Shown piece after piece: positions 4,838 through 43,335 of a stretch of 64,000 nt of DNA; the first letter of the stretch is position 1; the number at the start of each line of letters is the position of its first letter. The DNA comes from Minisyncoccota bacterium (GTDB lineage: Bacteria; Patescibacteriota; Minisyncoccia; Phycocordibacterales; SW-6-46-9). Below the pieces are notes generated by a model, which had not been told where the DNA came from, made no database searches, and saw only the letters and a list, made by a program, of their open reading frames with translations. The stretch covers positions 85,337-149,336 of the forward strand of contig JBBDRP010000002.1 in NCBI GenBank assembly GCA_040905385.1, in the 5' to 3' direction. The translations under genes were made by a program, and so were the position numbers.

Positions 4838-4873
4838 TAAAAATCAGCACCACAAGGTGCTGTTTGTTCGCTG

Positions 4874-4958
4874 CGGTGGGAGAGGGATTCGAACCCCCGG
4901 TGCCTTGCGGCACTCCGGTTTTCAAGACCGGTGCATTCGACCACTCTGCCATCCCACC
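4874..4958 (-). tRNA. tRNA-Ser(TGA)
   Basis: The reverse complement folds as a class II tRNA: acceptor GGTGGGA/TCCCACC, anticodon stem CCGGT/ACCGG with loop CTTGAAA, long variable arm, T-loop TTCGAAT. 85 nt. Confidence 0.85.
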
Positions 4959-4977
4959 AAATATTCACTTTTTAAAC
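4941..4977. repeat. Direct repeat copy 1: tRNA-Ser 5' end (18 nt) plus 19 nt of upstream flank
   Basis: 37-nt match with one mismatch to 5123-5159: CCACTCTGCCATCCCACCAAATAT(T/G)CACTTTTTAAAC. Confidence 0.7.
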
Positions 4978-5122: not shown

Positions 5123-5159
5123 CCACTCTGCCATCCCACCAAATATGCACTTTTTAAAC
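5123..5159. repeat. Direct repeat copy 2: orphan duplicate of the tRNA-Ser 5' end plus flank
   Basis: See 4941-4977. The 145 bp between the copies contains the palindrome CTAGAAGCTAAGCTTCTAG and the motif ACTGGTCGCTTTGCGACATGCG. Confidence 0.7.
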
Positions 5160-6415: not shown

Positions 6416-7864
6416 ATGCTTCGCAATCCGCTTTACCATATTTACCTGCTGCAGCTAGAGAATTACCACCTCCGTCGTTTTGTGACGGCCGCGGCACGAG
6501 ATTGTTTCTCACCACCAGAAAAAACGCGCCATCCAATTACCTGGACCGCGAAACTAATTGGTGTAACGACGCTGGCGGTCCTTTTTGCTCTACTGCTGTC
6601 GCTTGGTGCTGGTCTTTCGGCCGGCCCTCTCTTTTCTGACCCGTCGGTGGTCGGGTGGGGAGTCGCGGTTACTGTGTTTCTTTTTATGTACATAGGTTTT
6701 TTTCTGCCGTTGGCTGTCGGGTCGGCAGTTACACTGCCACTGGATCGCGTGATTCGTTTGATTATCCGCGCTCAGGCTCGTCGAAAAGTTTCTCGGCTGG
6801 ATAATCTCACCATTATCGGGATCACCGGCAGCTACGGAAAGACCACGATGAAACGAACGCTGAAGACTCTACTGTCTGCTGGTAAAAATGTGGTAGCCAC
6901 GGATGAAAGTCACAACACACCAATCGCCGTGGCCCGGTCTCTGCTGAATGACGTCACCGACCAAACCGACATCTTTATCGTGGAGATGGGCGCCTACGGC
7001 CCCGGAGACATCAAGGCCCTGTGTGAGATCACACCGCCAGACATCAGTGTTCTGAATGGTATCAATGAAGCTCACTTCGAGCGGTTCGGCTCACTTGAGA
7101 ATACCATCAATACCAAGTTCGAGATCGCTACCAGCGTCCCGGATGCCGCGGTAATTCTGAACGCTGATGACGAGACCGTGATGAAAAATTATAAGCGGTT
7201 TGTTGGTGATCGGGAGCCGCTATTCTACAGTGCAAAAAATCACGAAGCCTGTGATTTCGAGGTCTACGACAAACGGTTTCACGAGGACGGCACCGGTATT
7301 TCCTTTCGTGTTAAGCGTGACGACCAAGCGCTTGGGTACGCAAAGGTAAATCACTTTGCCGACTACATCATCGGTAATGTGATAGCTGGTTTGTGTGTGG
7401 GGCAGGTGCTTGGGATCTCTGAAGAGAAGGTTTTGAAAGCCGCTCATCAGATAACGCCGACATCGCACCGACTGCAGCCGATTCAACGCACCTCCAGTAA
7501 TGTGCTGGTGATCGATGACAGCTACAACGGTAACCCGGCCGGTGCTCATGCAGCCATTGGTGTGCTTGAGAAGTTCATCTCTCGTCGAACAATTTACGTA
7601 ACGCCCGGGTTAGTGGAGATGGGGGAGCGAGCTCCGAAGCTACACCGTGAGATCGGCAAGCATCTGGCTGCCGTGGTTGATGTGGTGGTGCTGGTAGAGA
7701 CGAGCGTGACCGACTACATCGAGGAAGGCCTGCGGCAGGGTGGCTTTGGAGGTGAGCTTGTTACTTTTGCTAGCCCACAGGAAATGCACGCCGGAATTTC
7801 TGAGCTTCTCAAGCCGCGGGATGTGCTGCTTTTCCAGAACGACTGGCCAGAGAATTATCGGTAA
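6416..7864 (+). CDS. murF: UDP-N-acetylmuramoyl-tripeptide--D-alanyl-D-alanine ligase (MurF) with an N-terminal multi-TM extension
   Basis: P-loop IIGITGSYGKTT and the MurF signature DDSYNGNP. About 130 N-terminal residues are hydrophobic. Confidence 0.7.
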   Translation: MLRNPLYHIYLLQLENYHLRRFVTAAARDCFSPPEKTRHPITWTAKLIGVTTLAVLFALLLSLGAGLSAGPLFSDPSVVGWGVAVTVFLFMYIGFFLPLAVGSAVTLPLDRVIRLIIRAQARRKVSRLDNLTIIGITGSYGKTTMKRTLKTLLSAGKNVVATDESHNTPIAVARSLLNDVTDQTDIFIVEMGAYGPGDIKALCEITPPDISVLNGINEAHFERFGSLENTINTKFEIATSVPDAAVILNADDETVMKNYKRFVGDREPLFYSAKNHEACDFEVYDKRFHEDGTGISFRVKRDDQALGYAKVNHFADYIIGNVIAGLCVGQVLGISEEKVLKAAHQITPTSHRLQPIQRTSSNVLVIDDSYNGNPAGAHAAIGVLEKFISRRTIYVTPGLVEMGERAPKLHREIGKHLAAVVDVVVLVETSVTDYIEEGLRQGGFGGELVTFASPQEMHAGISELLKPRDVLLFQNDWPENYR

Positions 7865-7876
7865 CCATCTTTTTCA

Positions 7877-7975
7877 CTGCACTACAAATAATTCTCCAAC
7901 GGAGAATTTTATCTGCTCGGGCAATTTTTCTGCTGCGCAGAAACCATGCAAATTGCCCTGCGCAAGGCTTGTGAA
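7877..7975 (+). repeat. Family-1 structured intergenic repeat, copy A
   Basis: CTGCACTACAAATAA + hairpin + TTTTATCTGCTCGG + nested hairpin containing CATGCAAAT + CCTGCGCAAGGCTTGT. Aligns with copies at 25123, 27686, 30751(-), 32633 and 35503. Confidence 0.8.
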
Positions 7976-8027
7976 AAAAGGGTAACCGATAATTTATAAA
8001 ACGAGAGGCGCATGAAAATAGGGTTAC

Positions 8028-8335
8028 CTCATGTATTGACTACCAAGTGTAGTGAGAGACATGCAAATATATTTGCATGTCCGAACGAAGCGCCGGTAGG
8101 TAGATTGCCAAATCTACTCTTCAAGCAAAGCGAGTAATGCACAAGCTTGTTTGTATATTCGATCGACGCGTAGTGCAGATGGGTAAACTAGTGGTGGAAT
8201 CTCGCAACCTTTGACTGCCAAACGAAGCGAGTAGAATGAACGCTTGCATTTATTCTCGAGCGAAGTGCCGGCAGACAAATGGATAAATTCACTTTCAGTT
8301 TTAAACTGAAAGTGAAAAGAACCTTTAGGTTCTCT
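8028..8335 (+). repeat. Family-2 modular hairpin-repeat locus 1
   Basis: Units of the form CCAA..AG(C/T)GAG + variable hairpin + TCGA.CGA.G.GCCGG. Unit-for-unit homology to 29858-30057, but with the unit order swapped. Both loci start with TTGACTACCAA. Confidence 0.7.
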
Positions 8336-25100: not shown

Positions 25101-25122
25101 TGTTCACATTCTTCTTTTGTGT

Positions 25123-25222
25123 GTGCACAAATAATTCTCCAGCGAAGAATTTTATCCGCTCGCGTGATTTTTCCACTACGTGAAAACCGTGCAAATTACG
25201 CTGCGCGAGGCGCCACAAAAGA
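25123..25222 (+). repeat. Family-1 structured intergenic repeat, copy B
   Basis: ACAAATAA + TTCTCCAGCGAAGAA hairpin + TTTTATCCGCTCG + hairpin with CGTGCAAAT + CTGCGCGAGGCGCC. Confidence 0.75.
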
Positions 25223-25372
25223 AAACGTTCTCTTTCAAGATAAAAAACCGCACAAATGTGAGGTTTTGTGCTGATTATATCAACAGATTGCTTGACCTAT
25301 ATTAAATTTTGTTCTACTCTCTACTTAGATAGATTCACCTTCACATAAATTCACAATCAAAACAGGATTCTT

Positions 25373-27666: not shown

Positions 27667-27685
27667 CTTGAAGTTTATCTACTTA

Positions 27686-27788
27686 CTGCACTACAAGTAA
27701 ATTCCCAGCGGGAATTTCTATCTGCTCAGCATCGCAGTCCCGTGCATACGGGACATCATGCTGCGATGCTTGCGCAAGGCTTGTAAGC
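27686..27788 (+). repeat. Family-1 structured intergenic repeat, copy C
   Basis: CTGCACTACAAGTAA + ATTCCCAGCGGGAAT hairpin + TTCTATCTGCTCAG + nested hairpin + CTTGCGCAAGGCTTGTAAG. Confidence 0.75.
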
Positions 27789-27830
27789 AGATAACACTTC
27801 ACACCGCCTCGAGGGAGGTTAAGGTAAAAA

Positions 27831-29857: not shown

Positions 29858-30057
29858 GACTACCAAACAAAGCGAGCAATACACAAGCTTGCTTGTATAT
29901 TCGAGCGACGTGCAGGAAGGTTGATTCTTGAATCAACTCTCCAAGCGTAGTGAGTGACATGGACACTTGTATCTATGTCCGAACGGAGCGCCGGGAGACA
30001 AAAAAATAACCTGCTTTCAAGCATGCTTGAAAGTAGGAAAGCTGAGAGCTTTCCAGA
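29858..30057 (+). repeat. Family-2 modular hairpin-repeat locus 2
   Basis: Begins TTGACTACCAA like locus 1. Units with ACAAGCTTGCTTGT and ATGGACACTTGTATCTAT hairpins are flanked by AGCGAG / GTCCGAACGGAGCGCCGG. The stems are covariant with those in locus 1. Confidence 0.7.
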
Positions 30058-30848: not shown

Positions 30849-31081
30849 ACATAAAGAAGGCGAACGACCCCTTGACTCTGAAGGTGATTTTCTTTACTAT
30901 GGCACTCAGCCTCACGGCCGCGTGGGCTTGTTTTGCGCGCGTAGTGAGGCATGTTGATTTCAGTACAGCTTCTCGGTGCATGGTCGCGAGCCAAGATTTG
31001 TTCTCGCGCGTTCGCGTCCGTGAATACCGGGACGGCTTAGAGAGATTACAAACATTACTAGAATTTAGTTTTTATTTTATT

Positions 31082-32275
31082 ATGGCAGACTTTAATCGAG
31101 ACAAACCCCACGTCAACATCGGTACAATTGGCCACGTTGACCACGGTAAGACAACACTTACTGCCGCAATCCTGCACACCCTGTACAACACTGACGGGTA
31201 CGATGCACAGGAGAAGGCGATCGACCAGATCGACAACGCTCCTGAGGAAAAGGATCGTGGTATTACAATTGCGTTGGCACATACTGAGTACATGACACCA
31301 AACCGTCACTACGCTCACGTTGACGCCCCAGGACACGCCGATTACATTAAGAACATGATCACCGGTGCCGCCCAGATGGACGGAGCTATCCTTGTGGTAG
31401 CTGCGACTGATGGTGCGATGCCACAGACTCGTGAGCACATCCTCCTGGCTCGCCAGGTTGGTGTTCCACGCCTCGTTGTATTCCTTAACAAAACCGACAT
31501 GGTTGATGACCCAGAGTTGATTGATCTGGTTGAGGAGGAGATTCGTGAACTACTAACACAGTACGAGTACGATGGAGACAACACTCCAGTACTTCGCGGC
31601 TCAGCCCTGAAGGCACTTGAGTCTGAGGATGCTGAAAGTGAAGAGGCCAAGGCTGTCATCGAGCTTATCGACGCTGTCGATGAGTGGATCGAGGAGCCGG
31701 CTCGTGAGACTGACGTACCATTCCTGATGCCGATCGAGGATATCTTCTCAATCGAAGGTCGTGGAACGGTTGCGACAGGACGTATCGAGCGTGGAGTGAT
31801 GAACGTTGGTGACGAGGCCGAGATTGTTGGTATCAAGGACACACAGAAAACCACAATCACCGGAATCGAGATGTTCAATAAGCAGTTGCAGGAAGGTCAG
31901 GCTGGTGATAACGCCGGAATTCTGCTACGTGGTCTGAAGAAAGACGACATCACCCGTGGACAGGTTATTGCAGCTCCAGGCTCAGTAACACCACACACAA
32001 GTTTTGAAGCTGAGGTGTACGTCCTCTCCAAAGAGGAAGGTGGACGACACACTCCATTCTTCTCTGGCTACAAGCCGCAGTTCTACATCCGCACAACGGA
32101 CGTAACTGGTGAAGTAACGCTAGAAGAAGGAACAGAGATGGTAATGCCGGGTGATACCGCTACCTTCAAGATTCAGCTGATTAACCCAGTTGCGCTTGAG
32201 GACGGAACTCGATTTGCTATCCGAGAGGGTGGTAAGACGGTTGGTGCTGGTGTTGTAACCAAGATCACAGAATAG
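31082..32275 (+). CDS. tuf: elongation factor Tu
   Basis: [35 protein letters not shown] and NKTD motifs. 397 aa. The ORF-track N-terminal extension was rejected. Confidence 0.95.
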
Positions 32276-32276
32276 T

Positions 32277-32609
32277 ATGGCGCAAGCTACCGACACTGAC
32301 ACAGGCCAGAAGCTCCGCATTCGTGTGCGAGCCTACGACCACAAAATCCTTGACTCATCAATTCAGCAAATCCTTGATACCGCTATTCGGTATGAGGCTG
32401 AGGTAGCCGGTCCTGTACCGCTACCAACCGAGACCAAGAAGTATACGGTGAATCGATCGACCTTTGTACACAACGATGCGCGAGAACAGTATGAAATGCG
32501 TGTACACAAGCGTCTTATTGATATTCAGGATCCAGCTGCTGACGTAATGGATGCACTGACGAACCTGAATCTTCCGGCTGGTGTCTCGATTGATGTGCAA
32601 ATGGTTTAA
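32277..32609 (+). CDS. rpsJ: 30S ribosomal protein S10
   Basis: LRIRVRAYDHKILD......G..PLPT....YTV.RS.HVHKD..E.YE.R.HKRLIDI. Confidence 0.9.
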   Translation: MAQATDTDTGQKLRIRVRAYDHKILDSSIQQILDTAIRYEAEVAGPVPLPTETKKYTVNRSTFVHNDAREQYEMRVHKRLIDIQDPAADVMDALTNLNLPAGVSIDVQMV

Positions 32610-32632
32610 CGTTCGCACCCTTCTCTTTACAC

Positions 32633-32712
32633 AGACATAAATAAAATCCTTGTAGATTTTTTATCCGCTCGGTCCGACTTGAGTCGGACCTGTGCGAGGT
32701 CTGAGTAAAAGA
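32633..32712 (+). repeat. Family-1 structured intergenic repeat, short variant copy F
   Basis: ACATAAATAAA + small hairpin + TTTTATCCGCTCGG + TCCGACTTGAGTCGGA hairpin + CCTGTGCGAGGTCTGAGTAAAAG. Confidence 0.65.
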
Positions 32713-32730
32713 GGGTGCTCACTTTAAGGT

Positions 32731-32814
32731 CGTACATCTCTCCCGAGAGATGTACGTGCCTGTCTGCCTGCTGGCAGACAGGGTAGTAGTAGAGGGTAAG
32801 TTGCATTTACCTCT
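32731..32814 (+). promoter_or_regulatory. Cluster of three perfect hairpins between rpsJ and rplC
   Basis: CGTACATCTCTCCCGAGAGATGTACG (11 bp stem), CCTGTCTGCCTGCTGGCAGACAGG (10 bp stem), AGAGGGTAAGTTGCATTTACCTCT. Sits in a 290-bp gap that other bacteria do not have. Confidence 0.5.
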
Positions 32815-32900
32815 TGAGATTGGTACAGTTTGAGCGCGAAAGTGTTGCTAAATGGTTAGGAGATCTCATTACATCTTCTGACAAATTGAAGATATAAATC

Positions 32901-33554
32901 ATGAAATACACACTTGGAAAAAAGAAAAGAATGACCCAGATCTTTGACGAGATGGGCAAGGCACATCCGGCCACCCCGGTAGCGGTTGAGCCCCTGAAGG
33001 TTGTTCGTATCAAAACGAATGATACAGACGGATACGCTGCTTACCAGCTTGGTTACGGGAGTCGTTCTGAAAAGAACACACCAAAGCCACAGCAGATTGA
33101 AGCAGCCAAGCGCGAGGACGGAACGTACTTTCGTTTCTTACGTGAGTTCCGACTCCAGGGTGATGACGACATCACGCTTGAGGTCGGTGATACGCTGGAC
33201 GTTGATGCTTTTGCTGTCGGCGACAAGGTTAATGTGTCCGGTGTTACGAAAGGAAAGGGATTCCAGGGTGTGGTAAAGCGTCATGGATTTGGTGGCGGTC
33301 GCCGCTCTCACGGTGGACAGAAGTCAGCAGAGCGCGGACCAGGATCCATCGGTGCGACCGGCCCAAGCCACGTATTTAAAGGTACCCGCATGGGAGGGCG
33401 CATGGGAGGAGAGAAGTCGACTGTTCAGAATCTTGAGATTGTGCACGTTGATCCGTCAGAAAATCTCATCTACATTCGCGGTGGGCTTCCGGGCCCAACA
33501 GGTGCTACAATCGAGATAAATGGAGAGATGCACACCAGTAAAACAGCCGCTTAA
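32901..33554 (+). CDS. rplC: 50S ribosomal protein L3
   Basis: GKK..MTQIFDE.G...P.T......V...KT...DGY.A.QLG..., FKGTRMGGRMGG. Confidence 0.9.
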   Translation: MKYTLGKKKRMTQIFDEMGKAHPATPVAVEPLKVVRIKTNDTDGYAAYQLGYGSRSEKNTPKPQQIEAAKREDGTYFRFLREFRLQGDDDITLEVGDTLDVDAFAVGDKVNVSGVTKGKGFQGVVKRHGFGGGRRSHGGQKSAERGPGSIGATGPSHVFKGTRMGGRMGGEKSTVQNLEIVHVDPSENLIYIRGGLPGPTGATIEINGEMHTSKTAA

Positions 33555-33556
33555 TC

Positions 33557-34231
33557 ATGAAATCATCTGTATACAACACAGCCGGTGAATCAGCCGACTC
33601 AATCGAACTTCCCGACGTGCTTTTCGGGCAGAAGCCGCGAGTTGATCTGCTGCATCGAGTGGTAACAGTGACGCGAAATAATCTTCGCCAGCCGATTGCC
33701 AGCACTAAAGACCGTCGTGATCGTGCTGGTGGTGGTCGTAAGCCGTGGCGTCAGAAGGGTACGGGTCGGGCTCGCCATGGTTCGGTTCGCAGCCCTATCT
33801 GGCGTGGTGGTGGTGTTACCTTTGGTCCAGATAAAGAGCGAAGCCATAAAGGTAAGGTGAGCAAAACAGAACGACGTCAGGCAGTGGTATCGGCTTTGTC
33901 CGGAAAGCATCGCGACGGTGAAGTACTGTTTGTTGATGAACTCTCTTTCAAGGAGCCGTCTGCTGCTGCCGCTCGCGAGATGATCACCAATCTTTCCGGT
34001 GTAAAGGGATTTGCCCCACTTGAAGACCGTCGCAAGAACGCAGCGCTCATTATCCTGCCCGAGTATGATGAAAATGTAGCGTTGTCCTTCCGTAACTTTG
34101 GAAACATTGCTGTACGAGAGGCAAAGGACATCAGCACACTTGATTTATTGACGTATAAATATACAATCATTGCTGACCCAGAGAAGGTTCTGGACACCCT
34201 CGTCTCTCGCGTTACGGCTAAAACTGCTTAA
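33557..34231 (+). CDS. rplD: 50S ribosomal protein L4
   Basis: RQKGTGRARHGS.RSPIWRGGGV.FGP. Confidence 0.9.
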   Translation: MKSSVYNTAGESADSIELPDVLFGQKPRVDLLHRVVTVTRNNLRQPIASTKDRRDRAGGGRKPWRQKGTGRARHGSVRSPIWRGGGVTFGPDKERSHKGKVSKTERRQAVVSALSGKHRDGEVLFVDELSFKEPSAAAAREMITNLSGVKGFAPLEDRRKNAALIILPEYDENVALSFRNFGNIAVREAKDISTLDLLTYKYTIIADPEKVLDTLVSRVTAKTA

Positions 34232-34233
34232 TT

Positions 34234-34632
34234 ATGGCTTTATTTGGAAAAGACAAAAAAGAAAAGGATACCGAAAAGAAGACGAAAGAGTCTTCAGCCG
34301 ATGACACGTCAACGAACGTCTCAGTAGCCACTGCCAAGCGAGTCGACAACAGCAATCACGATGTTTTGGTTAAGCCGCTCATTACTGAGAAGGCGACGTA
34401 TATGACTGATGACGGTATCTATGCATTTGTTGTACGGTCTTCGGCCAACAAGCCCCAGATTAAGCAGGCGGTAAAGGATGTGTATGGCGTTGATGTGGTG
34501 AAGGTTCGTACCGTCACGCTACCAGCCAAGCAGGTACCGGCCCGATCACGTCGAGCGAAGCCAGGTACCAAAGGCGGTCTCAAGAAAGCTTACGTTCATC
34601 TGAAAGACGGCGACTCAATCGAACTAATGTAA
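34234..34632 (+). CDS. rplW: 50S ribosomal protein L23 with an N-terminal K/E-rich extension of about 40 aa
   Basis: Core DVLVKPLITEKATYM..YAFVV...ANK.QIKQAV...YGVDVVKVRT. Confidence 0.85.
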   Translation: MALFGKDKKEKDTEKKTKESSADDTSTNVSVATAKRVDNSNHDVLVKPLITEKATYMTDDGIYAFVVRSSANKPQIKQAVKDVYGVDVVKVRTVTLPAKQVPARSRRAKPGTKGGLKKAYVHLKDGDSIELM

Positions 34633-34637
34633 ATAAT

Positions 34638-35486
34638 ATGAAAGACCCACGACCAACAACACCATCACAGCGACACACACGACTTTCTGATCACAAGAAG
34701 TCGGTAACTCGCTCCAAGCCATACAAGCGCCTGACCAGCGCGCGTCGAGGTACTGGTGGTCGTGGAAACACCGGGAAGATCACGACTCGTCACAAGGGTG
34801 GCGGGCACAAGCGCCGCATGCGTGGCATTGATTTCTCTCTTCGTGATAAGCAGGGAATTCCGTCAGTTGTTGAGTCCGTTGAGTATGATCCAAACCGATC
34901 CGGCTACATTGTCTTGCTTCTGTTTGCTGACGGTGAGCGGCGCTACATGCTGGCTCCGCAAGAGCTTTCAGTTGGTGAGCCGGTGGCGATTGCCGAGGAT
35001 GCAGAGGTAAAGCCAGGTAACCGATTGGCGCTTAAGAATATTCCTGTTGGTACAAGTGTTTTTAATATTGAACTAAAGCCAGAAGGAGGCGGAAAGATTG
35101 CCCGTTCTGCGGGCAACAGTGCCGAAGTATCAGCCAAAGGCAAGAAGCATGTAACGCTGAAGATGCCGTCTAGCGAGGTACGCAAAGTATCGCGTGAATG
35201 TTTTGCATCTGTAGGTACTGTTTCCAACCCAGAACACCGACAGCGGGTGATTGGTAAAGCTGGTCGTAACCGCTGGCTTGGCAAGCGCCCAACGGTACGT
35301 GGACAGGCGATGAACCCAGTTGATCATCCGTACGGTGGTGGTGAGGCGCATCACACTCGTGGAACCAAGCGAGCAAAAACCTACACTGGTCGTCCGGCTG
35401 GTAAAGGGCAGAAGACACGTAATCGCAAGAAGTACTCGAATAAGCTAATCGTATCGCGGCGTAAGAGTAAGAAGAAAAAGAAGTAG
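34638..35486 (+). CDS. rplB: 50S ribosomal protein L2
   Basis: GRN..G.I..RHKGGGHKR, MNPVDHP.GGGE motifs, and a K-rich C-terminus. Confidence 0.9.
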   Translation: MKDPRPTTPSQRHTRLSDHKKSVTRSKPYKRLTSARRGTGGRGNTGKITTRHKGGGHKRRMRGIDFSLRDKQGIPSVVESVEYDPNRSGYIVLLLFADGERRYMLAPQELSVGEPVAIAEDAEVKPGNRLALKNIPVGTSVFNIELKPEGGGKIARSAGNSAEVSAKGKKHVTLKMPSSEVRKVSRECFASVGTVSNPEHRQRVIGKAGRNRWLGKRPTVRGQAMNPVDHPYGGGEAHHTRGTKRAKTYTGRPAGKGQKTRNRKKYSNKLIVSRRKSKKKKK

Positions 35487-35502
35487 CTCATACCCTGTTT
35501 TG

Positions 35503-35605
35503 TTGCGTTACAAATAAACCACGCCAGCGCGTGGTTTTTATCTGCTCGGATGATTTTCTGCTAGCGCAGAACCATGCAAATCACCCTCCGCAAGACTTAC
35601 AAAAC
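35503..35605 (+). repeat. Family-1 structured intergenic repeat, copy E
   Basis: ACAAATAA + ACCACGCCAGCGCGTGGT hairpin + TTTTATCTGCTCGG + hairpin with CATGCAAAT + CCTCCGCAAGACTTACAAAACAG. Confidence 0.75.
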
Positions 35606-35626
35606 AGAGTATTCGCACCAATAGCG

Positions 35627-35773
35627 ACCAGCTCTTTCTAGAAAGAGCTGGTCTTAAAATAAAGATACCTTCGAAATAAGATAGATTCGCTCGAATATTG
35701 TAAATCGCCGAGCTGGCGATTTTTTAGTACGTATAAAAAAAGAAACTCGTATGCCGCTAAGCATACGAGTTTT
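35627..35773. terminator. Three consecutive hairpins after rplB, including a bidirectional terminator
   Basis: GACCAGCTCTTTCTAGAAAGAGCTGGTC (12 bp stem); ATCGCCGAGCTGGCGAT followed by TTTTTT; AACTCGTATGC CGCTAA GCATACGAGTT flanked by A7 and T-rich runs, serving both rplB and the antisense gene. Confidence 0.55.
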
Positions 35774-35788
35774 GTTGTTAGTTATTAT

Positions 35789-36256
35789 TTATCTGTGTCT
35801 TTCTGATTTGAAGATACGCAGACCCTGACCGTTTTCATCTGTTTTTTCCCAACTAAGATCATCTGGGCCAAAGTTACGAAAGTGTGCTTGCAGTAGTGAG
35901 TTAATGCAGTTACATTGGTATGTCGCCAGACACCAATTGAGGTCAATTAATTTACCTCCGACTACTTTCCAGTCCTCGGACAATACTGGTTCTTTCCAGT
36001 CTTCAATCAGAAGACTGGGATTATTGGGTCTTTGGATCAATATTGCAATTCCAATATTACCATTACTTTGTTCACATTTTATAAGTGACAATACCTCGTT
36101 GCCGCCAAATCTTCCTCTCGGCAATTGGCTTGTTACTTTCAACTTTTCAAAGTCACCAGTTACATAATGAACCTTAAGACCGTGATTAAGGTCCTCTGGT
36201 TGGAATTCAGCAGATCCGCTTCCATTAACAACTGCACTTGCTTTTTTGTCTAGCAT
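35789..36256 (-). CDS. hypothetical protein inserted antisense into the S10/spc ribosomal cluster
   Basis: 155 aa ORF between rplB and rpsS on the opposite strand. AT-rich. No recognisable family. Confidence 0.5.
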   Translation of the reverse strand: MLDKKASAVVNGSGSAEFQPEDLNHGLKVHYVTGDFEKLKVTSQLPRGRFGGNEVLSLIKCEQSNGNIGIAILIQRPNNPSLLIEDWKEPVLSEDWKVVGGKLIDLNWCLATYQCNCINSLLQAHFRNFGPDDLSWEKTDENGQGLRIFKSERHR

Positions 36257-36379
36257 TACTTACTCCTTTTGTTTGGTTTTGGTTTTATAAAAAACACATC
36301 CTCTACACATCTCTTGTGTGAAGATGCTTCCCGATTAAAATAATAGCGTATTAAACATCTTTTGGCAACTATATGTGTT

Positions 36380-36448
36380 GATCCCGTTAGAGAGTAAATA
36401 TACATCCTGTAGTGACAAAAGGCGGTTCCTGTACTCTCTAACGGGATT
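36380..36448. repeat. 17-bp inverted repeat (GATCCCGTTAGAGAGTA ... TACTCTCTAACGGGATT) enclosing 35 nt, overlapping a putative -35 box for rpsS
   Basis: Near-perfect long-stem hairpin. TTGACA at 36447-36452, then a 16 nt spacer and TACCAT. A second hairpin AAGCCTGCC TGAC GGCAGGCTT is at 36503-36526. Confidence 0.5.
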
Positions 36449-36552
36449 GACATTCTGCCCGATTTTGCTACCATGCGGGAGCAGTAAGCCTCATTTTTTC
36501 GGGGTTAAGCCTGCCTGACGGCAGGCTTTTACACTGCCAACCTAACTTACCT

Positions 36553-36894
36553 ATGACACGATCACTGAAAAAAGGACCATATGTTGATATTAATCTTCAG
36601 GAGAAGATTGCTAACACAACTCCGCAGGAAGCTGGAGTGATTAAGACATGGGCACGTAACTCGCAGATCTCACCGGACATGGCGGGATTCACGTTTGGTG
36701 TTCACAATGGTCGTGAGCATATTAAAGTAACTGTCTCTGAGGACATGGTTGGTCACCGTCTTGGGGAGTTTTCTCCAACACGCACGTTTCATCGGCATGG
36801 TGGTCGAATGCAGAAGAAACTCGAGGAGCAGAAGCAGGATGCTGAGCGTTCTCAGGCGCAGGCGGCTAAGGAGCAGGCCAAGAAGGCTTCATAA
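36553..36894 (+). CDS. rpsS: 30S ribosomal protein S19 with a C-terminal extension rich in Q/A/K/E
   Basis: RSLKKGP.VD..L..KI...........IKTW.R.S.I.P.M.G.T..VHNG...I.V.V.E.MVGH.LGEF.PTRTF..H. Confidence 0.9.
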
Positions 36895-39230: not shown

Positions 39231-39349
39231 ACGTGCAAACCGCTTAGGACTTAAGGAGTCTTAAGCGGTGAGTGGGTCGAACAACCCGAGTACCATAGCA
39301 AAGCTAGCCACAGGAAGATCAACGAAAAAGGAAGTAAAGTAATATTATT

Positions 39350-39565: not shown

Positions 39566-39712
39566 ATGTATATTTCGACTATGAATCTTCCGTACCCAGC
39601 CCTTTCTGTGTGGCAAAAGATGCTGTATTGTGTACACGATTTTGAAAGAGCTGGGTGCTGGAATTTCTAAGTTTACTCAAGTTGTCACTTTCGCTCACTA
39701 AGTAATTTCAAC

Positions 39713-40267: not shown

Positions 40268-40380
40268 ACCCTCTATGTAGCGTCTATTTCGTTGACATTG
40301 CACCCGCCAACTGTTACTCTAGCAGTCGGTATGCAGGGGCCTCAGATGGCCTTTTTTGTATCAAAAATACGTAAAATACT

Positions 40381-41036: not shown

Positions 41037-41218
41037 GTTTTTGCCCGTTGAATGAATACAGGTCATGAACGTGTATTCATTCTGAGGTTGCGAAACCTAA
41101 CCCGCGCGCAAAATCAAAGATTTTATTTTTGCGTAGCAAAAATGTTTAACCGGGTAGCGAAGTTACGAATGATATTTTTATTCGACTTCGTCTCAAAAAA
41201 TAGTCAGTAACATTCACT

Positions 41219-42116: not shown

Positions 42117-42692
42117 ATGCCAGAAGATACAAAAACAAAAGATAAAGCTGACGATAAGCCCAAGACTGATAGCAAGCCTTCAGAGAAGAAGGGTGCCAGT
42201 CGCAGCGGTAAGAAGCAGAAAAAGCGCCAACGTCGCAGTGGCGGTGGTCGTCGTGATGATTTTGAGGCAGAGATCATTGATGTTCGTCGCGTAACGCGTG
42301 TGGTTGCTGGTGGACGTCGCTTCTCTTTCCGTGTCGCAGCAGTTGCTGGAGACCACAAAGGTAAGGTTGGCGTTGGTCTCGGAAAAGCAAATGATATATC
42401 TGATGCAATTGGCAAGGCTATCAACAACGCCAAAAAGAACTCGATCAAGATAGATCTTACTGACGACAACACAATTCCGTATCCAATCTCGGCCAAGTTC
42501 AATGCATCGGTCGTAGATATGCATCCAGCCCCAGGACGTGGACTTGTGTCGGGTTCTTCGGTGCGTGATGTGGTACGATTGGCAGGTATTAAGGATGTCA
42601 GTACCAAGCTCATCAGCCGCTCTAAAAACAAGCTGAACAACGCCCGTGCTGCTATTGCGGCCCTAAAGAAGATCGAAGCTAAGGAAGAATAA
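42117..42692 (+). CDS. rpsE: 30S ribosomal protein S5 with an N-terminal K/D-rich extension
   Basis: V.R.V.GGRR..F...V.VGD..G.VG.G.GKA..V..AI.KA. Confidence 0.9.
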   Translation: MPEDTKTKDKADDKPKTDSKPSEKKGASRSGKKQKKRQRRSGGGRRDDFEAEIIDVRRVTRVVAGGRRFSFRVAAVAGDHKGKVGVGLGKANDISDAIGKAINNAKKNSIKIDLTDDNTIPYPISAKFNASVVDMHPAPGRGLVSGSSVRDVVRLAGIKDVSTKLISRSKNKLNNARAAIAALKKIEAKEE

Positions 42693-42694
42693 TT

Positions 42695-43126
42695 ATGCAG
42701 TTACACGACCTAAAACCAAAAAGCAGAGCTAGCAAAAAGCGCATCGGACGCGGTGGGCCACACGGCAAGCAGTCCGGTCGTGGACACAAGGGTCAACTGG
42801 CTCGAGCCGGTGGAACACCACGTCCACAGCTACGCGATCGCATTAAAAAGATTCCTAAGCTTCGGGGATACCGACACAACCCGGTAAAGAAGAAGGCAGT
42901 AGCAGTAAATGTTGCCCAGCTCCAGCGGGTTGCAACCAAGGGTGATGTTGTATCACCACAGTACGTGGTGGAACACGGCCTGGTACGCAAGTCTGGCGCC
43001 CAGACACCAAAGATAAAGATTCTTGGTCAGGGTGATATTTCCACCGCTGTTACCGTGGTTCGTTGTCAGGTTTCTGACGTGGCTAAAGAGAAAATTGAGC
43101 AGGCAGGCGGTGAGGTACGAAGCTAG
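42695..43126 (+). CDS. rplO: 50S ribosomal protein L15. No L30 gene lies between rpsE and rplO
   Basis: L..L.P....KK...RGRG...G.G.T.G.GHKGQ. Confidence 0.9.
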   Translation: MQLHDLKPKSRASKKRIGRGGPHGKQSGRGHKGQLARAGGTPRPQLRDRIKKIPKLRGYRHNPVKKKAVAVNVAQLQRVATKGDVVSPQYVVEHGLVRKSGAQTPKIKILGQGDISTAVTVVRCQVSDVAKEKIEQAGGEVRS

Positions 43127-43335
43127 AAATTGTCTGCATCTCACCATATATTGCTATTATGAACACACTATCCCGCATCATTAATTATTCTTCGCCGGCT
43201 AAAACAATCTTATTTCGGCTGCATAACATCGCTTCGAGTTCAATGAACTTTGATTCATTTCACTCTCCAGCTCGTTTTTCGCTCGAAATAAGACCGTTTA
43301 TAGCACGGCGTGAGATAGCAGATAATTTCTAAAAT

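Follow-up and report, generated by a model that had tools for sequence, protein, structure and literature searches.

Structured spacers and an antisense gene in the S10-spc ribosomal-protein cluster of a Patescibacteria genome, and its probable division into several transcription units

The stretch of DNA considered here (the window, 64 kb of contig JBBDRP010000002.1, numbered from its first letter) carries the S10-spc ribosomal-protein cluster, which according to the open reading frame (ORF) map is complete on the + strand and retains the universal gene order, rpsJ-rplC-rplD-rplW-rplB-rpsS-rplV-rpsC-rplP-rpmC-rpsQ-rplN-rplX-rplE-rpsN-rpsH-rplF-rplR-rpsE-rplO-secY. [quoted passage not shown] Taken as a whole, these observations are probably best explained by a cluster composed of several transcription units, which meet at break points typical of the lineage. 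The gap between tuf and rpsJ is 1 nt, and the genes and spacers are arranged as follows.

~31082-32275, + strand: tuf
32277-32609, + strand: rpsJ
rpsJ|rplC spacer: 291 nt
32901-33554, + strand: rplC
between rplC and rplB, + strand: rplD and rplW
34638-35486, + strand: rplB
rplB|rpsS spacer: 1066 nt
36553-36894, + strand: rpsS
3' of rpsS, + strand: rplV to rplO
39231-39349: rplN|rplX spacer, 119 nt
39566-39712: rplX|rplE spacer, 147 nt
rplE|rpsN spacer: 113 nt
41037-41218: rpsH|rplF spacer, 182 nt
43127-43335: rplO|secY spacer, 209 nt
from 43336, + strand: secY

Relatives identified through RplB were Candidatus Paceibacterota and other Patescibacteria metagenome-assembled genomes (MAGs), the best being L001 at 82% identity (related loci are designated by L-numbers), and the window genome evidently belongs to Candidatus Paceibacterota, within the candidate phyla radiation (CPR). 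For a survey of junctions, 22 cluster genes were located in 80 related loci and each junction was measured. The rplB|rpsS gap reached at least 480 nt in 22 of 57 loci (maximum 4591 nt), the rpsJ|rplC gap in 14 of 61 (median 91 nt, maximum 3575 nt) and the rplE|rpsN gap in 9 of 38 (maximum 2450 nt). Among the 80 loci, these three recurrently large junctions were found in Patescibacteria only, and rpsQ|rplN, an operon boundary in Escherichia coli, was tight (median 4 nt). ORFs in the large gaps lie on either strand and are nearly all unrelated from genome to genome; the cargo at rplB|rpsS includes peptidase M3, QueA, an IS200-type transposase, SDR and ATP-grasp enzymes, ParB_N, sigma-70 and a DksA/TraR finger, and the rpsJ|rplC spacer carries inserted genes in many relatives. 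A first-pass annotation of this DNA had stated that rpsJ and rplC normally have no gap between them, which is too strong in view of these distances. It had also called the arrangement unusual for a conserved operon; this holds against the E. coli model but not within the lineage, where the survey makes it the norm. The split therefore appears to be real, but a trait of the Paceibacterota lineage and not of the window genome alone.

The signals thought to divide the cluster, together with the hairpins that accompany them, are the following.

30872-30926, + strand: tuf promoter TTGACT-17-TACTAT, then a hairpin and T-rich tail, predicted start of the tuf-rpsJ unit
32731-32756, + strand: perfect 11-bp hairpin CGTACATCTCT-CCCG-AGAGATGTACG, without a U-run
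32759-32782, + strand: perfect 10-bp hairpin CCTGTCTGCC-TGCT-GGCAGACAGG, without a U-run
32801-32829, + strand: weak promoter-like site TTGCAT-17-TACAGT 5' of rplC, with 7/12 matches and under the scan threshold
35626-35653, + strand: perfect 12-bp hairpin GACCAGCTCTTT-CTAG-AAAGAGCTGGTC
35702-35725, + strand: intrinsic-terminator-like hairpin AAATCGCC-GAGC-TGGCGATTTTTT
35742-35773, no strand assigned: bidirectional terminator with a 13-pair stem and T-runs on both strands, between the convergent rplB unit and orfX
36447-36474, + strand: rpsS promoter TTGACA-16-(TGc)TACCAT, with an extended -10
36487-36530, + strand: rpsS leader, hairpin AGCCUC...GGGGUU and then a second hairpin
40292-40354, + strand: rpsN promoter TTGACA-17-TACTCT and leader hairpin GGGGCC-UCAGAU-GGCCUUUUUU

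Spacer folding was compared with dinucleotide shuffles, giving z-scores of -7.05 (32610-32900), -6.56 (35487-35788), -6.53 (36370-36552) and -4.72 (41037-41218), with no shuffle folding as well. A scan found 27 terminator-like sites against 14.5 +/- 4.1 expected. A G+C-rich stem-loop directly followed by a U-run, as in an intrinsic terminator, occurs at 35518-35540, 35702-35725 and 35742-35773; the U-run is absent at 32731-32756, 32759-32782 and 39239-39269. The first of these terminators belongs to copy E (35485-35621) of a repeat described below as Family-1, so that copy E plus three hairpins or terminators (35626-35653, 35702-35725 and 35742-35773) do follow rplB, as had been annotated. The spacer of about 290 bp between rpsJ and rplC, with its Family-1 copy inside (copy D), was likewise described correctly, but its three hairpins, reported as perfect with 10-11-bp stems, measure 8, 11 and 10 bp in the stem; the 8-pair one, GGTCCGAC-TTGA-GTCGGACC, is the distal hairpin of copy D itself.

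On the promoter side, the rpsS promoter is kept in L001, L081, L082, L085, L088 and L093. More distantly, 28 Paceibacterota loci gave a strong promoter match, and about 25 of them have TTGACA-16/17-TAnnAT before rpsS, among them loci where rplB and rpsS are separated by only about 100 nt. The rpsN promoter and its leader hairpin are conserved in L001, L085 and L088. At the position of the weak site 5' of rplC, relatives carry CTTGCAT-N17-TATAGT. Eight Paceibacterota loci (L004, L010, L011, L012, L013, L017, L024 and L025) have a common motif between this promoter and rplC, consisting of (C)ATGTCC, a stem-loop and GGACCA(A/C)TGG; it occurs neither in the window nor in Rfam and is a candidate leader of the rplC-rplB unit.

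From these signals, a first unit, tuf-rpsJ, would run from the tuf promoter to Family-1 copy D; the terminator hairpin in that copy is weak, so that transcription probably either continues into rplC or starts anew, weakly, at 32801-32829. A second unit, rplC-rplD-rplW-rplB, would end in copy E, whose hairpin P2 is a canonical terminator, with two more terminators as backup. orfX would have its own promoter, run convergently to the rplB unit and stop at the shared bidirectional terminator. A third unit, rpsS to rplE, would start from a strong promoter placed back-to-back with that of orfX, and a fourth from the conserved promoter 5' of rpsN. The division into several units proposed in the first-pass annotation is thus retained at rplB|rpsS, which has terminators and a conserved promoter, and at rplE|rpsN, where rpsN has a conserved promoter and leader hairpin, and is not supported at three further hairpin spacers downstream; the boundary at rpsJ|rplC is uncertain, because a weak promoter-like site and a weak terminator are all that mark it.

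Family-1, the element that lies at the end of two of these predicted units, has six copies in the window, all intergenic and about 115-140 nt long.

7861-7994, + strand: copy A, overlapping the stop codon of a Mur-ligase gene
25103-25237, + strand: copy B, 3 nt past the stop codon of a SIMPL/DUF541 gene
27668-27806, + strand: copy C, 2 nt past the rplL stop codon
30729-30864, - strand: copy F, reversed, just 5' of the tuf promoter
32612-32727, + strand: copy D, 3 nt past the rpsJ stop, covariance model score 87.5 bits
35485-35621, + strand: copy E, overlapping the rplB stop codon

The six copies score 87-148 bits against the covariance model, and each, folded singly, gives the same three-way junction, in which P1 is the outer stem, P2 a terminator-like hairpin with UUUUAUCYGCUCGG after it, and P3 a long hairpin closed by YGCUCGG/CCUGCGCR. 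P2 of copy E (35518-35540, ACCACGC-CAGC-GCGTGGT plus TTTTT) is a canonical intrinsic terminator; that of copy D is weak, with a 6-bp A/U-rich stem, and the post-rpsJ copy of L088 is without P2 entirely. The five forward copies begin 0-3 nt past a stop codon, as do, at 0-5 nt, the copies checked in L001, L016 and L020; the L036 copy begins 127 nt past rplB. Family-1 follows rpsJ in L088-L090 and in the Vogelbacteria MAG L020 (5 nt past the stop), rplB in L001, L081, L092, L093, L016 (3 nt past the stop) and L036, and secY in L001, and a reversed copy 5' of tuf in L088-L090 matches the position of copy F. Even with RplB at no more than 54-58% identity, genomes keep the position and orientation. 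Among 16 copies, compensatory (two-sided) changes were found in 29 of 31 pairs and in all three helices, and 92.7% of cells are paired, compared with 41-53% in slid controls; 0 of 500 shuffles reach that level.

Searches for known or further examples of Family-1 were made in several ways. An Rfam scan, covering the window and seven related loci at the gathering score, with two regions of the window also searched at E <= 5, returned only tRNAs and chance terminator-like matches, with no family matching Family-1 or a ribosomal-protein leader. The metagenome pattern TATCYGCTCG-N15-45-TGYGCRAGG gave chance matches only (at least 120 stretches matched, and none of 80 loci passes the covariance model). 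Repetitive extragenic palindromes (REP) and the mosaic elements built from them (BIME) in proteobacteria are extragenic palindromes at gene 3' ends that can stabilise the upstream mRNA or terminate transcription; REP units have a conserved stem and a 5' GTAG-type tetranucleotide and are recognised by the protein RAYT. Family-1 is likewise dispersed, structured, extragenic and placed at gene 3' ends. It differs in being a three-way junction whose stems vary between copies yet stay complementary, in the absence of the 5' GTAG, in its placement 0-5 nt past stop codons, and in the persistence of orthologous copies across deep divergence. Family-1 is best regarded as a conserved three-way-junction RNA of the 3' untranslated region (UTR), organized around a terminator hairpin, which may mark or terminate the 3' ends of units and protect the upstream mRNA.

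The sequence GCTCACTTWAA, which closes copies D and F and bears a resemblance to boxA, shows no enrichment over the window (3 matches, 2.7 expected) that would make it a general motif. It is related to a sequence, ...TCGCTTGCGCTCAC(T)TAAGAA..., that stands just 5' of ribosomal-protein starts in L008, L009, L012, L025, L036, L039 and L045 and at 39680-39712 of the window, and that is often bracketed by GATTTTTA...TAAAAATC.

A different kind of element lies at the rpsS promoter.

36378-36450, no strand assigned: MITE-like insertion TCCCGTTAG...CTAACGGGA, a 65-nt element (36382-36446) plus a TTGA duplication

The TTGA duplicates are at 36378-36381 and 36447-36450, the second within the rpsS -35 box. 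The inverted repeat ATCCCGTTAGAGAGTA/TACTCTCTAACGGGAT comprises 16 perfect pairs, folds as a 22-pair stem and abuts the TTGACA at 36447. Empty sites exist in L081 and L082, the closest relatives (rpsS dS from the window about 0.5), where the sequence reads ...GGCAACTATATG(A/T)G-TTGACATTCT..., that is, TATG(A/T)G-TTGACATTCT, and is 69 nt shorter than in the window. The filled site of the window reads ...GGCAACTATATGTG-TTGA, then TCCCGTTAGAGAGTA...TACTCTCTAACGGGA, then TTGACATTCT (TATGTG-TTGA, 65 nt, TTGACATTCT). The -35 boxes of orfX and rpsS are 9 nt apart in the empty-site relatives, to which the insertion adds 69 nt. A 65-nt element has thus inserted into the rpsS -35 box, the TTGA duplication rebuilding TTGACA. 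What had been annotated as a 17-bp inverted repeat overlapping a TTGACA box is present, but with 16 perfect pairs that adjoin the box, and evidently represents the insertion of a mobile element instead of an operator or leader.

The same termini, shared by 18 copies counted over 12 genomes, delimit 17 more elements in other Paceibacterota loci, namely L008, L014, L020 (four), L025, L030 (two), L032 (two), L036 (two), L048, L059 and L061 (two). Copies elsewhere are usually 95-127 nt long, and copy number is one in the 64-kb window and four in 20 kb of L020. In 13 of the 18, the element lies directly against the ATG or GTG that starts an open frame of 60 codons or more, and the left flank mostly repeats ATGA or ATGG; the L025 copy sits on TTGAC, with TTGA repeated. 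An element end directly at the start codon (...CTAACGGG|ATGAAx) is usual in L008, L014, L020, L030, L032, L036, L048 and L061. In L014 the duplication preserves both stop and start, because the left TGA of the copy doubles as stop codon for the upstream gene, and L020 has two tandem copies with one ATGA in common. Among bacterial MITEs, the Correia elements of Neisseria provide an example of insertion into promoters or creation of them. The window element resembles them in being short, non-coding, bounded by terminal inverted repeats and a target duplication, multi-copy in relatives and situated in a promoter, and differs in its termini (TCCCGTTAG...), its 2-4-bp (T)TGA duplication and its preference for start codons.

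Further downstream, the rplN|rplX spacer contains a 14-bp perfect hairpin (39239-39269; spacer z -3.07) and the rplX|rplE spacer a long hairpin (~39588-39660; spacer z -2.51), both without a U-run. In L001, L085 and L088 the rplN|rplX junction is 3-5 nt (ATATT / ATT) and rplX|rplE 2-14 nt, compared with 119 and 147 nt in the window. The rpsH|rplF junction is 9 nt in L085 and L088 and about 180 nt in L001, which has a structured spacer in common with the window. No terminator-like site was found in the three spacers, and no + strand promoter-like site except in the last 18 nt before rplF. The hairpins that had been annotated here as interrupting the operon therefore do exist, but look more like insertions within units than like unit boundaries, since terminator and promoter signals are missing. 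The spacers are derived, lineage-specific insertions at junctions that were tight before, and their hairpins may serve in processing or stability, or have no function. A search of the window gave no significant second copy of them, with 19 nt near rpsT as the best match. There, 5' of rpsT (S20, 2673-2930), a hairpin ACCCGGTTAAA...TTTAACCGGGT at 2585-2640 resembles ACCCGCGC...TTTAACCGGGT in the rpsH|rplF spacer and ACCCTGTTAAAC...GTTTAACAGGGT in L001.

Given this mixture of elements, the contents of all the gaps could be selfish or neutral repeats (MITEs, REP-like palindromes) within a cluster that remains one long transcript. One element is a proven insertion with target duplication, the three downstream spacers are recent insertions, and Family-1 is multi-copy, with near-identical cores in copies A and F. 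This explanation is nevertheless rather unlikely for the cluster as a whole: the rpsS and rpsN promoters are conserved across the class even where rplB and rpsS are about 100 nt apart, canonical terminators stand 3' of rplB, and Family-1 keeps its positions, orientation and compensatory changes at the RplB divergence given above.

The gene inserted between rplB and rpsS is described by two features.

35789-36256, - strand: orfX, encoding a 155-aa orphan protein
36263-36368, - strand: orfX expression signals, comprising a Shine-Dalgarno (SD) sequence AAGGAG (36263-36268), a 5' hairpin with U-run, and the promoter TTGCCA-17-TATTAT (36340-36368)

The SD lies 6 nt before the ATG; SD and promoter boxes are conserved across the family and the 5' hairpin in most members (window and L081-L083, compared by eye). 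The protein matches exactly an NCBI Paceibacterota hypothetical protein. Two homologues were found among 5.8 billion proteins and six representatives among 1.84 billion (profile search), and identities to the window protein are 66, 58, 41, 36, 30, 31 and 26%. Every homologue looked up is antisense beside rplB and/or rpsS, with three families (four contigs) showing the full cluster and the rest being 1-2-kb contigs with one flank or both tips. For the closest pairs the ratio of nonsynonymous to synonymous substitution (dN/dS) is 0.11-0.25, with dN about three times that of rpsS, and 15 residues are invariant over eight sequences, including H30, D86-W87, C109 and C115. These data identify orfX as a real, fast-evolving gene under purifying selection and fixed in position, and so bear out the AT-rich, opposite-strand gene of the first-pass annotation, at 40% G+C compared with 52% for rplB.

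The possible function of orfX is less easily approached. AlphaFold gave an unusable model from three sequences (predicted local distance difference test score, pLDDT, 44.7) and a better one from eight (pLDDT 77.9, predicted template modelling score 0.75), although only one of five models was good. Foldseek searches with the latter against PDB and BFVD gave nothing below E = 0.1, a sequence-profile search of PDB gave no match, and neither orfX nor the L001 ORF discussed below had a significant match in Pfam, NCBIfam, PADLOC or PHROGs. The protein might be conflict-related cargo (a toxin, immunity, anti-phage or host-interaction protein) carried in a hypervariable hotspot, with no tie to the ribosome. 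Its fast evolution (26-41% identity in distant members, RplB being 80-90% identical in L085, L086 and L088, where a comparison could be made), small family, low G+C content and the fact that other genes take the same slot, namely an orphan family of no relation to it in the L001 clade and diverse cargo elsewhere, are consistent with this. Such a role is nonetheless unlikely, as its neighbours are always rplB and rpsS, with no partner gene, mobility signatures are absent around it, its position is strictly fixed in all members, its dN/dS is well under 1, and the family searches returned no significant match. A joint reading goes further: Family-1 would be an undescribed class of cis-acting RNA, a three-way junction around an intrinsic terminator at stop codons, forming a conditional boundary between ribosomal-protein sub-operons in Paceibacterota, with termination or processing dependent, for example, on translation or on a protein, and orfX, whose compact divergent promoter region is shared with rpsS and which is confined to this slot, would be a lineage-specific factor tied to the ribosome or to ribosomal-protein expression and not a passenger. 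This remains speculative, and is about as doubtful as the neutral-repeat explanation.

In the L001 clade (L001:2033-2509, - strand; L091, L092 and L093), the same antisense slot beside rpsS holds a 158-aa orphan family, which is conserved, has an invariant NCHC motif and is divergent from rpsS. The L001 ORF was considered as a diverged orfX and ruled out (BLAST E 29 or worse, hmmsearch E 4.6, hhalign probability 0.3%).

Hairpins also recur close to the predicted transcript starts. The second hairpin of the rpsS leader, AAGCCUGCC-UGAC-GGCAGGCUU at 36507-36528, is followed by UU (a 4-U run in all), and L081 and L082 have UCCCGCC-GUG-GCGGGAUUUUU at its position, so that the structure is kept while the sequence is not. 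In distant loci a G+C-rich hairpin with U-run, often AAGCUC-loop-GAGCUUUU, lies 7-10 nt past the rpsS promoter. The same layout of promoter, hairpin and U-run, with a distance of about 10-30 nt from the promoter, precedes rpsN, tuf and the non-ribosomal orfX, and because the last two share it, it is better seen as a general feature of the lineage than as one specific to ribosomal-protein genes. The 5'-terminal stem-loops of the E. coli ompA and Bacillus subtilis aprE leaders stabilise their mRNAs. The window hairpins are similar to these leaders and to attenuators in being stable and near the predicted transcript starts of rpsS, rpsN, tuf and orfX, and different from ompA and aprE in carrying a terminator-like U-run; they may act as 5' stabilisers or as promoter-proximal attenuators.

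Autoregulation offers another interpretation of the structured spacers, as ribosomal-protein leaders that mimic rRNA sites and repress their own sub-operons. There are precedents in the E. coli S10 leader with L4 and the spc operon with S8. Structured spacers do lie directly 5' of rplC, rpsS, rpsN and rplF, the structure of the rpsS and rpsN leaders is kept as sequence changes, and the stem AAGCUC...GAGCUUUU recurs in similar form before rpsS in many relatives. The layout shared with tuf and orfX, the presence of Family-1 also after Mur-ligase and SIMPL genes, the lack of the rplN|rplX and rplX|rplE hairpins in close relatives and the absence of any Rfam leader match even at E <= 5 make autoregulation distinctly unlikely as the general explanation. 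Finally, that the antisense ORF is spurious or the arrangement an assembly artefact, as the missing functional annotation and the poor first structure model might suggest, is extremely improbable, because the same gene is conserved in the same place in independent assemblies from NCBI, Logan, JGI and ENA, with constrained evolution, conserved SD and promoter, invariant residues and a better eight-sequence model.

Several points weigh against a cluster of separate units bounded by Family-1 and conserved promoters. All transcriptional behaviour proposed here derives from sequence and comparison. Taken together, the sites of the promoter scan show no enrichment (21 found, 17.4 expected), so that the case for promoters rests on conservation, and a hairpin with U-run directly past a promoter should terminate that promoter's own transcript. 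For Family-1, fitting the alignment to the model inflates the pair counts, and distant copies score just 25-45 bits, with rough E-values. Copy F is reversed and follows no gene, which fits poorly with a pure 3'-UTR role, and copies A and F combine near-identical cores with different P1 stems; this could mean mobility or gene conversion instead of selection at the RNA level. As for the MITE-like element, no autonomous partner coding for a transposase was seen in the related loci examined, although no search was aimed at one.

Compared with the S10-spc-alpha operons of E. coli and B. subtilis, the cluster has the same gene order from rpsJ to rpsQ. Its boundaries, however, appear to lie at rpsJ|rplC, rplB|rpsS and rplE|rpsN, with rpsQ|rplN tight instead. 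Where E. coli has a single S10 operon, the window has a gap of 1066 nt that contains terminators, a conserved promoter and a gene in convergent orientation, and thus non-ribosomal genes inside a stretch that E. coli transcribes as one operon; no S10-leader family was found by the Rfam scan of the window, and rpmD is absent. In archaea, S10 is co-transcribed with EF-1alpha, and L3-L4-L23-L2-S19... form a separate operon. The window, with tuf and rpsJ 1 nt apart under an apparently common promoter and rplC after a long spacer, may be likened to this arrangement, but is bacterial, and its rplB|rpsS break is not part of the archaeal pattern.

The syntenic ribosomal-protein block serves as a backbone of CPR phylogenomics and is usually taken as one conserved operon. 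Here it appears to be partitioned unlike that of E. coli, with junctions that are long-lived hotspots of gene gain. In the literature on CPR bacteria, no description was found of the operon split, the MITE-like element or the Family-1 RNA. Three testable objects emerge: a position-fixed, covarying RNA not in Rfam; a MITE family with a preference for start codons and promoter boxes, which may survive because its target duplication rebuilds the signal; and an orphan protein family found only antisense at the rplB/rpsS junction. Since few regulators are known in the uncultured CPR bacteria, such cis-elements are among the few handles on their control of ribosome synthesis.

Other features of the window concern individual genes and repeats. 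The rplO|secY spacer, at 209 nt, compares with a median of 5 nt in relatives, and its first 150 nt, which were tested, are unstructured (z -0.2). The missing rpmD (L30) would be expected between rpsE and rplO (42692-42695). L23 (34234-34632) has an N-terminal extension of about 40 aa, the Pfam match covering residues 43-130, and S19 (36553-36894) a C-terminal tail of about 30 aa rich in lysine, glutamine and alanine. A second repeat family has five copies, at 8043-8270 and 29864-29997, each made of CCAAnnnAGYGAG, a variable hairpin and CGAnCGAAGYGCCGG; the copies are in tandem, 5' of a 228-aa ORF (8484) and of a small sigma-70 region 4 ORF (30160), and their hairpins vary between conserved flanks. 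A 37-nt sequence occurs twice in direct orientation (4941-4977 and 5123-5159, 97% identical, 182 nt apart); it overlaps the end of a tRNA-Ser gene (4873-4958, - strand) and resembles the partial tRNA duplications that integrating elements leave behind.

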